A stretch of DNA of 20,000 nucleotides from an uncultured virus (IMG/VR IMGVR_UViG_3300025154_000083) (taxonomy: Duplodnaviria > Heunggongvirae > Uroviricota > Caudoviricetes): IMG/VR virus record IMGVR_UViG_3300025154_000083, positions 47,214-67,213 of that record; one strand, written 5' to 3'. Position numbers and translations under genes: made by a program. Shown here piece by piece: positions 1-10,669 of the stretch (position 1 is the stretch's first letter; each line of letters opens with the position of its first letter). The notes under the pieces are model-generated. The model searched no databases and had not been told where the DNA came from. It saw nothing but the letters and a program-made list of their open reading frames with translations.

Positions 1-17
1 CCAGCCCTGGGTTAGGC
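1..17 (-). other. attC site, partial (R'' box and start of left arm)
   Basis: Minus strand reads GCCTAAC CCAGG GCTGG, 3 nt after the stop of ORF 21-197. It has the same CTAACCCAG start as the attCs beginning at 311 and 1428. Confidence 0.75.
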
Positions 18-20
18 CAT

Positions 21-197
21 TTACTCCGTGATATTAATCCCATCCGAAAACTCGAATTGCGACGGATATATGCCGTATTCTTTCCTGGCCGCCTCGTTCA
101 AAGCTTTCATTGCCTCCGTATGCTCGCATCCAGTCTCATCTACTTCGAATTCCGCCTCGACCAAGAGATGGGCATAGCCCCACGCTTTCATTTTCAT
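21..197 (-). CDS. Hypothetical acidic protein, 58 aa (cassette D); not in the ORF track
   Basis: MKMKAWGYAHLLVEAEFEVDETGCEHTEAMKALNEAARKEYGIYPSQFEFSDGINITE*. It has a GAGGAG RBS upstream and fills the space between two attC sites. Confidence 0.8.
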   Translation of the reverse strand: MKMKAWGYAHLLVEAEFEVDETGCEHTEAMKALNEAARKEYGIYPSQFEFSDGINITE

Positions 198-218
198 TCC
201 GTCTCCTCGGGCCTCGCG

Positions 219-311
219 GCCTAACGTGGCGATAACCCGCGCCGGCCTTAACGGGTTTCCGTAGCACGACTCACGCGCGTGGCCGGCGTCGGGTTCATTG
301 CTGGGTTAGAC
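219..311 (-). other. attC recombination site (93 bp)
   Basis: Minus strand: R'' GTCTAAC, CCAGC, L'' AATGAACC, CGACGCCGGCC ... GGCCGGCGCG, L' GGTTAT, CGCCAC, R' GTTAGGC. Imperfect palindrome with the extra base in L''. Confidence 0.92.
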
Positions 312-448
312 CCCTTTGGCACCCAAGCGTTGGGTGCGGTTGTTCCGCACTTGCGGCACCTCAATGTGGTGCGCGTCACGATAACCTTTCCGCCGCAGGC
401 GCAGCACGAGATACCTCTGTCGCCCGCCGGGAAACTCACTGTTACCAT
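248..448 (-). CDS. Small zinc-ribbon protein (cassette C)
   Basis: Two CxxC pairs (CCACGG...CRKCG). The GAGGAGG RBS at 460-454 favours the ATG at 448 over the track start at 454. The ORF reads into the attC and stops inside it. Confidence 0.7.
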   Translation of the reverse strand: MVTVSFPAGDRGISCCACGGKVIVTRTTLRCRKCGTTAPNAWVPKGSNPAMNPTPATRVSRATETR

Positions 449-463
449 CACCACCTCCTCGCC

Positions 464-571
464 GTCTAACGCTGCGCATCAGCGGCACCGATCACGCGGG
501 CCGAGGACTCGAAGAGACGCAACTGAATTGCCCCCGCGTGGTCGGTGTCCGGCTGCATGCGCTTGTTAGAT
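464..571 (-). other. attC recombination site (108 bp)
   Basis: Minus strand: R'' ATCTAAC, AAGCG, L'' CATGCAGC, CGGACACCGACCACGCGGG ... CCCGCGTGATCGGTGCC, L' GCTGATG, CGCAGC, R' GTTAGAC. Confidence 0.93.
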
Positions 572-1317
572 GATTTGAATCCACGGTACCATGCGTCCAG
601 GTATGCTTTGGGTGTGGGCCAGCGAGTCTTGTCTTCGCCAGCCTTGTTCCAGAACCACCATGTGACCGCATGCTCAAAAACCCGATAACATCCGGGCCAC
701 CTTTGCCTGTGCTGCTTCACCTTACCCATCCCGACCGAGACGATTAAAGGGCACACCATTCAGCCGATCCGGTCAAAGCCCTGGTCATACAGTTCGCAAA
801 ATGGCAGGCCAAGACCTTCGATGAACTCCCAGACGTGCCATTCGTGCCACTCGAAAATGGGAGAATACTGCCATTTGCCGCGAAACCTTGAAATCCTCCC
901 ACGCTCTTTCCTCCCTGGAGACTCTTCGGCCCGTATGCCAACCAGTTTGTGTTTCAAGGGGATAGCTTTCGTTGGGTCTTTCTTTAGTACGTCGCAACAC
1001 CAGCGCTTATTAAAAACGGGAGGAAACTTAGCTCTGATGCCTTCCCACATAGACATGACGGGACGGTAAATACGAGTATCAGGGTATGTCTTGAGCCCGA
1101 ACTTGATCGCCTCAGGTGGATCAATGCCGGTGAAGCTGTGGACCGGAAAGCATTTAACTCCAGCCATTTTCACCAACTCCATGAGCACAACTGAGTCTTT
1201 GCCGAAACTATTGCAAACCATATACCCCTCAGATGGTTCATGAGCCTGCATAAAACCCACGGACTCAGCGACCACGTTTTGCAATGGTACTACCGACATT
1301 TGCTGTGCTCTTGGCAT
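466..1317 (-). CDS. PAPS reductase-family (PP-loop, Fe-S) protein, 283 aa if the in-frame UGA at 760-762 is read as selenocysteine (cassette B)
   Basis: Motifs SFGKDS, FTGIDPPE, RWCCDVLK, GIRAEES..R, PIFEW..VW and LYDQGFDRIG-[TGA]-MVCP. Track ORFs 760-1317 and 466-759 are contiguous and in the same frame. The family call is strong; Sec readthrough is inferred. Confidence 0.85.
723..753 (-). promoter_or_regulatory. Putative bacterial SECIS element
   Basis: mRNA: UGA AUGGUG UGCCC UUUAAUC GUCUC [GGUC] GGGAU GGGUA. The upper stem GUCUC/GGGAU closes a GGUC loop that begins after a 23-nt spacer from the UGA; the lower stem is UGCCC/GGGUA. Confidence 0.65.
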
Positions 1318-1335
1318 TGACTTTACTCTCGCGCG

Positions 1336-1428
1336 GCCTAACTTTGGCGATAACCAGCGGGCACCCTAGCACCGCCGACTGCATAAAACCAAGGCGTGGT
1401 ACCCGTCTGGTTCATTACTGGGTTAGGC
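1336..1428 (-). other. attC recombination site (93 bp)
   Basis: Minus strand: R'' GCCTAAC (contains the TAA stop of the upstream ORF), CCAGT, L'' AATGAACC, AGACGGGTACC ... GGTGCCCGCT, L' GGTTAT, CGCCAAA, R' GTTAGGC. Confidence 0.92.
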
Positions 1429-1671
1429 TTCCGCAAACGCGAAAACCTTAATGGCCTTTCCGTCAAAATCAACCGTGACCGGGTTGAGCCCAAAGAGCCC
1501 CCCGCCGGCGTAATTGCATGGCCCGCCCGTTTTATCGAAAATCTGCTTATCAGAATTCATCGCTCGTCCCACACAGGAGAAAGCCGCTTCCCGGTCTGAT
1601 GCCCCGGCATCCTTCCAATCCTTAACGCTGGCAACGTAGCCACAGGAGGGGCACACAAACTTCCAGCCCAT
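1423..1671 (-). CDS. VVA0879-family-like Cys-containing phage protein (cassette A), possibly N-terminally truncated
   Basis: WKFVCPSCG.V.SV.DW..AGA...FSCVGR...PCNYAGGGLF pattern, recognised from memory of the family. The stop codon lies within the attC R'' box, as is typical for cassettes. Confidence 0.7.
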   Translation of the reverse strand: MGWKFVCPSCGYVASVKDWKDAGASDREAAFSCVGRAMNSDKQIFDKTGGPCNYAGGGLFGLNPVTVDFDGKAIKVFAFAEA

Positions 1672-1717
1672 TGGATCTTTCCCGAATCGCTGGGTTGTCT
1701 ACTCACCGAGCCCAACA

Positions 1718-9688: not shown

Positions 9689-9923
9689 TTTCGGTTTTCC
9701 TTTCTTCAAGTCGCGTCTTGATGAATCCGTAGACCTTGGAAGACATGAGCCGCTCCAGCCTGGAGATGATGGCATACTCCGTGCGGCCATGCTTTCCCAC
9801 TGCATCATCCAGAAAGGCGAGGAAGGCGACGGTCAATTCCATGTCTTCCTTGTCGGTCCATGGCTGGCCTTTCTTAATGGAACGTGTTGAAGGTTTGATG
9901 TCGTAGTCGTCCGCATCCATCAT
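9678..9923 (-). CDS. Small Myb/HTH-like protein
   Basis: GQPWTDKEDMEL...HGRTEYAIISRL pattern; ATGA overlap with the upstream stop at 9920-9922. Confidence 0.65.
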   Translation of the reverse strand: MMDADDYDIKPSTRSIKKGQPWTDKEDMELTVAFLAFLDDAVGKHGRTEYAIISRLERLMSSKVYGFIKTRLEERKTENAK

Positions 9924-10669
9924 GACCCTTGCCCTTCTCTCCACAAAACAGGCACCGTATCAGGGTTGGGACATCGAAACGACCACCACCAGATTTCTCT
10001 GCGCTCCAAAACAAGACAATAGCCACCAGACAAGAAAGGACACATGAAAATCAACGCTCGATTCTCGCTTGATATTTTGTACATACCAAAGCGATTTCTA
10101 GCTGATTCAATGCCATTAGTCTTCCACTCCCGAAAGACCATGGGAGCCAAGTCTATCGCATCGGATAGGTCTGAAAGACACATTAAGTCGCCTATTTTTG
10201 CCCCGTTGAGGGATGCCCCGTCGAGGGATGCCCCGTCGAGGAATGCCCCGTTGAGGGATGCCCCGTTGAGGGATGCCCCGTTGAGGGATGCCCTGTTGAG
10301 GAATGCCCCGTTGAGGAATGCCCCGTTGAGGGATGCCCTGTTGAGGGATGCCCCGACGAGGGATGCCCCGACGAGGGATGCCCCGTTGAGGGATGCCCCG
10401 ACGAGGGATGCCCCGACGAGGCATCCCCCGACGAGGGATGCCCTGTTGAGGGATGCCCTGTTGAGGGATGCCCCGTTGAGGAATGCCCCGTTGAGGGATG
10501 CCCCGTCGAGGAATGCCCCGTTGAGGGATGCCCTGTTGAGATTGACTTTTAATCTTACAGCCAGTTCAAGCGCGGCTTTTAAGGCATAACGCTCATTGCT
10601 TACATCTACTTCTGTCTCGAAAAGCACGGAAGCATCAAACCAAGATTTGATCTGTGTCAATACCTTCAT
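9920..10669 (-). CDS. Pentapeptide repeat protein
   Basis: 23 consecutive xL(N/D/V)(G/R)A pentapeptides; N-terminal IKSWF...VLFE...LKAALELAV as in phage pentapeptide proteins; AGGAG RBS. Confidence 0.93.
   Translation of the reverse strand: MKVLTQIKSWFDASVLFETEVDVSNERYALKAALELAVRLKVNLNRASLNGAFLDGASLNGAFLNGASLNRASLNRASLVGGCLVGASLVGASLNGASLVGASLVGASLNRASLNGAFLNGAFLNRASLNGASLNGASLNGAFLDGASLDGASLNGAKIGDLMCLSDLSDAIDLAPMVFREWKTNGIESARNRFGMYKISSENRALIFMCPFLSGGYCLVLERREIWWWSFRCPNPDTVPVLWREGQGS
10199..10543. repeat. 15-bp tandem repeat, 23 units (consensus TGCCCCGTTGAGGGA), coding for the pentapeptide repeat
   Basis: Directly visible near-identical 15-mers without spacers. Confidence 0.97.

Follow-up and report, generated by a model that had tools for sequence, protein, structure and literature searches.

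Bacterial SECIS elements are stem-loops with a G-containing apical loop that lie 16–37 nt after the UGA (main text of PMC13188914). The gene analysed here resembles the bacterial selenoprotein genes treated in that text, such as fdhF and the UxxC-type families, in its in-frame UGA at a conserved critical Cys with conservation on both sides, in the interspersion of candidate selenocysteine (Sec) forms and Cys forms on its tree, in the UxxC arrangement, and in an intra-ORF stem-loop with a G-containing loop. Unlike them, it is borne by a phage and by a cassette, and its fold is that of the PAPS-reductase/PP-loop family and not thioredoxin-like. Selenoprotein catalogues are built from cellular genomes, and the literature that we searched held no report of a bacteriophage selenoprotein or of a Sec form of the PAPS-reductase family. 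None of the six terms phage, virus, viral, PAPS, phosphoadenosine and PF01507 is found in the main text of the inventory in PMC13188914, in the main text and the searchable part of the supplement of BSepDB (PMC13326102), or in deep-Sep (PMC12013277). If, as is most likely, its UGA encodes Sec, the gene would represent a selenoprotein family absent from the catalogues searched.

Three further systems are close to this locus. According to the available text of PMC1175818, the [4Fe-4S] motif of APS reductase reads CC-X~80-CXXC, and a C-terminal catalytic Cys is essential in all sulfonucleotide reductases. Compared with the APS reductases of P. aeruginosa (2GOY) and M. tuberculosis (7LHR), our protein has the same PAPS_reduct fold and a CC-X77-[U/C]xxC set in register with the cluster motif, whereas the conserved C-terminal catalytic Cys is absent and a helical C-terminal domain is found. 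With DndC and BrxP it has a PAPS-reductase domain in common and, in its relatives, a setting among DNA-modification and anti-restriction genes; here, however, the matches are to the domain only, and no Dnd or BREX partners lie nearby. Lastly, integrase-less attC cassette arrays (CALINs) have been described in phage genomes (available text of PMC9892861), and the present locus is like them in that a gene lies between attC-like hairpins with no integrase match in the scanned ORFs; it differs in that the cargo is a candidate selenoprotein gene, the reading frame of which extends into the attC of its own cassette.

Results

A PAPS-reductase-family gene with one in-frame TGA

We refer to the whole stretch of DNA analysed, 20,000 nucleotides long, as the window; it comprises bases 47,214–67,213 of a 67,213-bp IMG/VR virus record with a completeness of 97%. 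A preliminary description of this DNA had treated two ORFs as one reading frame broken by a single TGA, giving GFDRIG-U-MVCP and open for 97 codons beyond. Read-through translation bore this out. The ORFs at 760–1317 (185 aa, ATG start) and 466–759 (97 aa), both on the minus strand, lie in the same frame and form a complete PAPS-reductase-family ORF (466–1317, minus strand) of 283 codons, one of which is the UGA at residue 186. This in-frame TGA, the proposed Sec codon U186, occupies 760–762 (762→760, minus strand) at the first position of UxxC, and the frame past it runs to a TAG at 466–468. The read-through protein matches Pfam PAPS_reduct with an E-value of 2e-24, and it also matches phrog_424.

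Elsewhere in the window phage, which uses the standard code, TGA is a normal stop. Table 11 gives a coding density of 93%, and although TGA terminates 30 of the 74 greedy ORFs, only the PAPS-reductase gene has a long, homology-backed extension past it. Logan contigs from two groundwater runs (depth ~12x) are identical to window 300–1500 including the TGA and may be the source data themselves; for the runs X5 and X7, from other studies, the TGA codon lies outside their coverage. No RNA data set is among the runs listed for this sequence.

TGA and Cys codons at one column

Homology to the window gene retrieved 60 viral loci, one of which was reported without coverage of the TGA column. As the preliminary description had anticipated for a Sec codon, independent homologues carry TGA where others have Cys: across the approximately 60 related loci the aligned codon is TGA in L001, L002, L005 and L009, and TGC or TGT in the other 56. 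L001 and L002 (an 89,432-bp record, 100% identical) constitute the window lineage, while the L005 and L009 proteins are 49% and 47% identical, respectively, to that of the window. The TGA is thus not private to the window lineage. Within each of these three lineages duplicate assemblies are 100% identical and therefore add no independent sequence.

We also searched with a degenerate GF.R.G-TGA-..CP pattern. All three matches in IMG/VR were true and represented the three known lineages; 4 of the 12 in JGI/ENA metagenome contigs were true, again from the same three lineages; and in GTDB genomes none of five was true, the rest being short non-coding chance matches. In the protein database, products of the TGA forms from public gene callers are stubs of 153–224 aa. 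Two proteins among the 120 listed database matches, P0068 (184 aa) and P0112 (187 aa), and two among the best 150 representatives, P0124 (from the L005 lineage) and P0272 (182 aa), terminate exactly at ...R[IL]G. For P0068, P0112 and P0272 the stop codon at the column is presumably TGA. A protein search with the C-terminal ORF alone found only itself.

In each of the window, L005 and L009 genes there is exactly one internal stop, followed by 62–97 open codons (62–68 in L005 and L009). The frames beyond the TGA keep the family motifs RWP..FEH..W..YRGF in all three lineages, and they end at different stops: TAG in the window, a second and genuine TGA in L005, and TAA in L009. On a maximum-likelihood tree of 72 proteins the Sec label requires four changes, at least three of them forced by well-supported branches; the lineages concerned are the window lineage, L005 with P0068, P0112, and L009.

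Hairpins downstream of the UGA

A SECIS-like hairpin after the UGA had been predicted from the window alone, with a GUCUC/GGGAU stem, a GGUC loop, a 23-nt spacer and a UGCCC/GGGUA lower stem. We find the stem-loop at 718–750 (minus strand), with a 7-bp upper stem (726–732 paired with 737–743), the loop GGUC at 733–736 and a 6-bp lower stem; the upper part reads UCGUCUC-GGUC-GGGAUGG, its loop starts 23 nt past the UGA, and the extended element folds at −16.4 kcal/mol. Stem, loop and spacer are thus as predicted, but the lower stem of the MFE fold is CCUUUA/UAAGG.G instead. The hairpin of L005 is UGCUCAU-CGGGA-AUGGGCA, with its loop starting 25 nt after the UGA, and that of L009 is GUUCUUGU-GUC-ACAAGAAC, with its loop starting 19 nt after the UGA. 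All three TGA lineages accordingly have a perfect stem of 7–8 bp and a G-containing loop of 3–5 nt (GGUC, CGGGA, GUC) placed 19–25 nt downstream, and the three hairpin sequences are not homologous to one another. By a stricter description drawn up post hoc (a perfect stem no shorter than 7 bp and a loop no longer than 5 nt), 3/3 candidate Sec forms qualify versus 2/56 Cys forms.

The Cys gene L004 and the TGA gene L005 encode the same peptide, ICSSGMG, here. Their arms differ by two synonymous changes and one Gln/Lys replacement, and through these differences only L005 has Watson-Crick pairs where there would otherwise be mismatches and wobbles.

As evidence, the hairpins are weaker than the preliminary description had implied, even though they are present in all three lineages. 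With our own implementation of the bSECIS rule given in the main text of PMC13188914 (cut-off −7.5), the window (−16.4) and L009 (−11.2) pass and L005 (−7.3) narrowly misses, but 13 of the 56 Cys forms pass too. None of the three is more stable than its dinucleotide shuffles (z −0.73 for the window, −0.12 and −1.10 for the other two), and 47 of 200 shuffles of the window hairpin fold at least as well. An Rfam scan of window 400–1400 (E <= 10) gave no match. We consider the hairpins supportive of Sec and not decisive.

Alternative readings of the TGA

The alternative that survives best, although we regard it as unlikely, is that the gene is split: the UGA would end a 185-aa N-terminal subunit, reinitiation at the adjacent AUG or GUG would give a 97-aa C-terminal subunit, and the three remaining Cys would hold the cluster. 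Sites in which three Cys hold a [4Fe-4S] cluster are known from related sulfurtransferases, for example TtuA, a Foldseek neighbour of the window protein, and conservation of the downstream part is predicted by this arrangement too. A start-capable codon does follow the TGA directly in 3/3 lineages (ATG in the window gene and GTG in the other two), but GTG, as a Val codon, is already the commonest at that place in Cys forms (L004, L007, L010, L022), and no Shine-Dalgarno-like sequence was found within 5–10 nt upstream. Moreover, C-terminally truncated homologues that end at a conserved motif all end at the TGA column, with no other split point seen, and all three visible stops are TGA, despite the minority share of TGA among stops in the window phage (30/74). 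Termination and reinitiation is disfavoured because the stop substitutes codon for codon, with no indel, for a ligand Cys that is invariant in 50/50 aligned homologues, and is always TGA.

It is very unlikely that the codon is simply leaky, such that low-level insertion by a near-cognate Trp or Cys tRNA would yield a little full-length protein in the absence of dedicated machinery. Such read-through would need no host Sec system and would also keep the downstream region under selection. However, a protein with Trp at the invariant Cys ligand would probably be inactive, and leakiness leaves unexplained both why the stop is always at the same Cys and always TGA, and why a hairpin lies at a fixed distance in 3/3 lineages.

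A nonsense mutation, leaving either a pseudogene or a truncated 185-aa N-terminal domain in use by itself, is strongly disfavoured. TGC or TGT does become TGA by a single base change, and public gene callers annotate only truncated products, but a mutation of this kind would have had to occur independently at least three times at one column and to be followed, in three lineages, by 62–97 codons with neither a further stop nor a frameshift. The preliminary description had proposed comparing constraint on the two sides of the TGA, and the comparison shows the same constraint as in intact Cys forms: the ratio of C-part to N-part identity of the three candidate Sec forms against 66 Cys forms is 0.73–0.81, versus a median of 0.69 (5th–95th percentile 0.46–0.93) for Cys–Cys pairs. 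Conservation past the TGA thus matches that of Cys forms, from which we conclude that this part is translated and subject to ordinary purifying selection; this removes the pseudogene and truncation readings. Finally, a sequencing or assembly error, or genome-wide reassignment of TGA in the window phage, can practically be dismissed, since, for all that the DNA comes from metagenome assemblies and the runs covering the codon may be source data, the identical TGA stands in window-lineage records of 67, 89 and 10 kb and the same codon in two other, unrelated lineages, for both of which there is more than one assembly, while the 93% coding density and the other 29 TGA-ended ORFs, none with a homology-backed extension, speak against reassignment.

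The window copy is an integron gene cassette

Integron attC sites are bounded by an RYYYAAC inverse core and a GTTRRRY core. In window 1–1700, attC-like hairpins separate a series of promoterless short ORFs (of 58 aa, 68 aa, 82 aa and, between the last two, the PAPS-reductase gene). We delimited three of these hairpins, all imperfect, 93–108 nt long and with RYYYAAC...GTTRRRY ends. The attC of the PAPS-reductase cassette (464–571, minus strand) has a DNA fold of −35.7 kcal/mol (z −6.45). That of the preceding cassette (1336–1428, minus strand; z −1.84) lies immediately upstream of the PAPS-reductase start, and that of the next cassette, with the 68-aa ORF at 248–454, is at 219–311 (minus strand; z −3.54). 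The two 93-nt sites (219–311 and 1336–1428) share 78% identity, and their inner stems show compensatory changes. The box CTAACCCAG occurs three times in window 1–1700, versus 0.07 expected; besides the attC-like sites, it is seen at 7–15. The claim that the gene is phage- and cassette-borne thus held up: attC sites flank it, and the window copy is an integron gene cassette. No integrase was matched among the scanned ORFs of the window phage.

The attC at 464–571 overlaps the 3′ end of the gene and encodes a non-homologous C-terminal tail (approximately residues 249–283) together with the TAG stop. In the AF2 model, pLDDT is below 50 for most of residues 253–283, and the homologues end at YRGF[EK]. 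At the L005 and L009 genes no attC-type flanking sites were found under the crude rule used. Outside the window, an isolated attC-like hairpin, GTCTAACCCGGC...GTTAGAC, occurs at 36,350–36,442 of G000, the genome of the window phage.

Fold, motifs and likely role of the protein

The AF2 model of the protein has a mean pLDDT of 88 and contains a distinct helical C-terminal domain. Its nearest solved structures in Foldseek are CysH/APS reductases, with target-normalised TM-scores of 0.53–0.65. In the motif S-F-G-K-D-S (1192–1209, minus strand), which we take to be PP-loop-like, S37, G39, K40, D41 and S42 are invariant. The pair Cys107-Cys108 (RWCC; 994–999, minus strand) is invariant in 50 aligned homologues, as is Cys189 (751–753, minus strand), the second position of UxxC/CxxC, and residue 186 is Cys in 50/50 aligned sequences when the read-through U of the window is counted as C. 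All four positions of the CC-X77-UxxC set are hence invariant on that count. Profile alignment onto the APS reductase 2GOY places WCC on ECC and RIG[C/U]xxCP on SIGCEPCT. The position of U at a conserved Fe-S cysteine, as first claimed from the window alone, was upheld in that U aligns with the first Cys of CxxC in the APS reductase CC...CxxC motif (2GOY; available text of PMC1175818).

We rejected a CysH-type reductase of sulfate assimilation as the function. The C-terminal catalytic Cys is lacking, the sole Cys past CxxC being C211, which lies outside the invariant or near-invariant columns, and with every NCBIfam CysH/APS model the score falls far short of the cut-off (PRK02090, 50.9 vs 154; TIGR00434, 43.3 vs 165; TIGR02055, 36.3 vs 235). 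No NCBIfam selenoprotein model matched the window protein. Nor does it appear to be a full DndC/BrxP phosphorothioation enzyme: the best match in the defence library, the PAPS-reductase domain of BrxP (E 2.4e-15), covers only positions 135–316 of a 779-position model, and no Dnd (dndBDE) or BREX type 4 partner genes were found in the neighbourhood of the window gene or of related loci.

The window gene is set in a replication and recombination module comprising HNH, a RecD-like helicase, an exonuclease, an SbcC-like ATPase and a primase. In 12 related loci a C5 DNA methylase is adjacent in five, Lar in two and an integrase in two. Since the catalytic C-terminal Cys is absent and relatives adjoin C5 methylases and Lar, we infer a role in DNA modification or anti-restriction and not in sulfate assimilation; the protein is probably an enzyme of that kind, by analogy with the sulfur-inserting enzymes DndC and BrxP. 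In a related viral contig (L022:2–2986), where a C5 DNA methylase precedes the Cys-form gene, this methylase contains intein/Hint and LAGLIDADG domains.

A sister phage and hints about the host

The L009 locus lies in an 85-kb phage whose flanking genes are 83–100% identical at the amino acid level to those of the window phage (at 39.0, 44.0, 46.4–47.0 and 49.7–50.5 kb of genome G000), a similarity that marks it as closely related and built on the same backbone. Its own Sec-type copy is only 47% identical to that of the window, belongs to another branch of the family, and sits at a different locus, in another variable region, adjoining a Ros/MucR regulator. At the position of the window's array both the cassettes and the HNH gene are absent from this phage, and a lone attC-like site is found (L009:5727–5819). 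That two sister phages separately acquired a rare Sec state (three lineages in 59 viral loci) suggests a link between that state and the host of these phages, the simplest case being a host that decodes Sec.

We found no tRNA genes in the window phage with aragorn, and neither tRNA-Sec nor SelB in the four phage records. Basilisk-like Bacillus phages are reported to carry both a gene predicted for tRNA-SeC and one for a PAPS reductase, gp11 (available text of PMC6145125). Identity to the nearest isolate phages does not exceed 31%, which gives no hint of a host. Some Cys homologues (48–51% identity) are labelled as Desulfovibrio or Deltaproteobacteria MAGs, and these labels, like the Ros/MucR neighbour in L009, are only weak hints. 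Among 401 genomes of one phylum, centred on a chance-match genome, there was no close homologue (best 30% identity), and in the same 401 genomes of this chance-chosen phylum the attC-box pattern gave one one-mismatch match versus two control matches; neither result bears on the host.

Two other features of the phage were observed. Next to the genes for internal virion proteins and tail fibres, the structural region has a single ORF of 4,576 aa (18,740–32,470 of genome G000, outside the window), which may encode a giant virion protein of N4-like type. A pentapeptide-repeat protein gene (window 9920–10669, minus strand) has a 15-nt tandem periodicity over ~500 nt, with repeats at 10124–10618.

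Discussion

The reading first proposed from the window alone, that UGA encodes Sec in a UxxC motif of a mobile gene, is supported by the distribution of TGA and Cys codons at the column, the downstream constraint, the normal use of TGA as a stop elsewhere in the phage, the alignment of the Fe-S motif, and the flanking attC sites. We put at roughly three in four the probability that the UGA is a genuine Sec codon, dependent on the host for its decoding, in the gene of an Fe-S PP-loop enzyme carried by phage and cassette. On this reading, the gene product would be a full-length protein of the PAPS-reductase/PP-loop family, of ~250 aa plus the attC-encoded tail, in which UGA-186 would be decoded as Sec by the SelA, SelB, SelC and SelD of the host, presumably under the direction of the intra-ORF stem-loop 19–25 nt downstream of the UGA. 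The promoterless cassette copy would be transcribed with the minus-strand replication operon. Sec would replace the first Cys of the CC...CxxC set, whose members are cluster ligands in APS reductases, and the protein therefore probably holds a [4Fe-4S] cluster in which a selenolate is one of the ligands, or else a cluster accompanied by a Se-S redox pair.

We hold a broader version of this proposal at slightly better than even odds, namely that groundwater phages depend on the Sec decoding of their host for an Fe-S PP-loop DNA-modification enzyme with Sec as a cluster ligand, that Cys was switched to Sec at least three times in phage copies, and that one such copy circulates as a cassette.

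On this broader version, no selenoprotein family of bacteriophages and no gene cassette for a selenoprotein would have been described before. If the Sec reading is correct, the phage would be one of the few that rely on the selenium-decoding machinery of the host. The family would not have a thioredoxin fold and would have Sec at a [4Fe-4S] ligand position, which would make it useful for studies of selenolate-ligated clusters. Because public gene callers cut these genes to stubs, phage "PAPS reductases" are miscounted and mis-sized. Horizontal transfer would carry Sec-coding genes along with their cis element, and such genes would function only where the host is Sec-competent; this would place a new constraint on the host range and expression of mobile genes and, on the broader version, would tie the fitness of the phage to the selenium status of its host.
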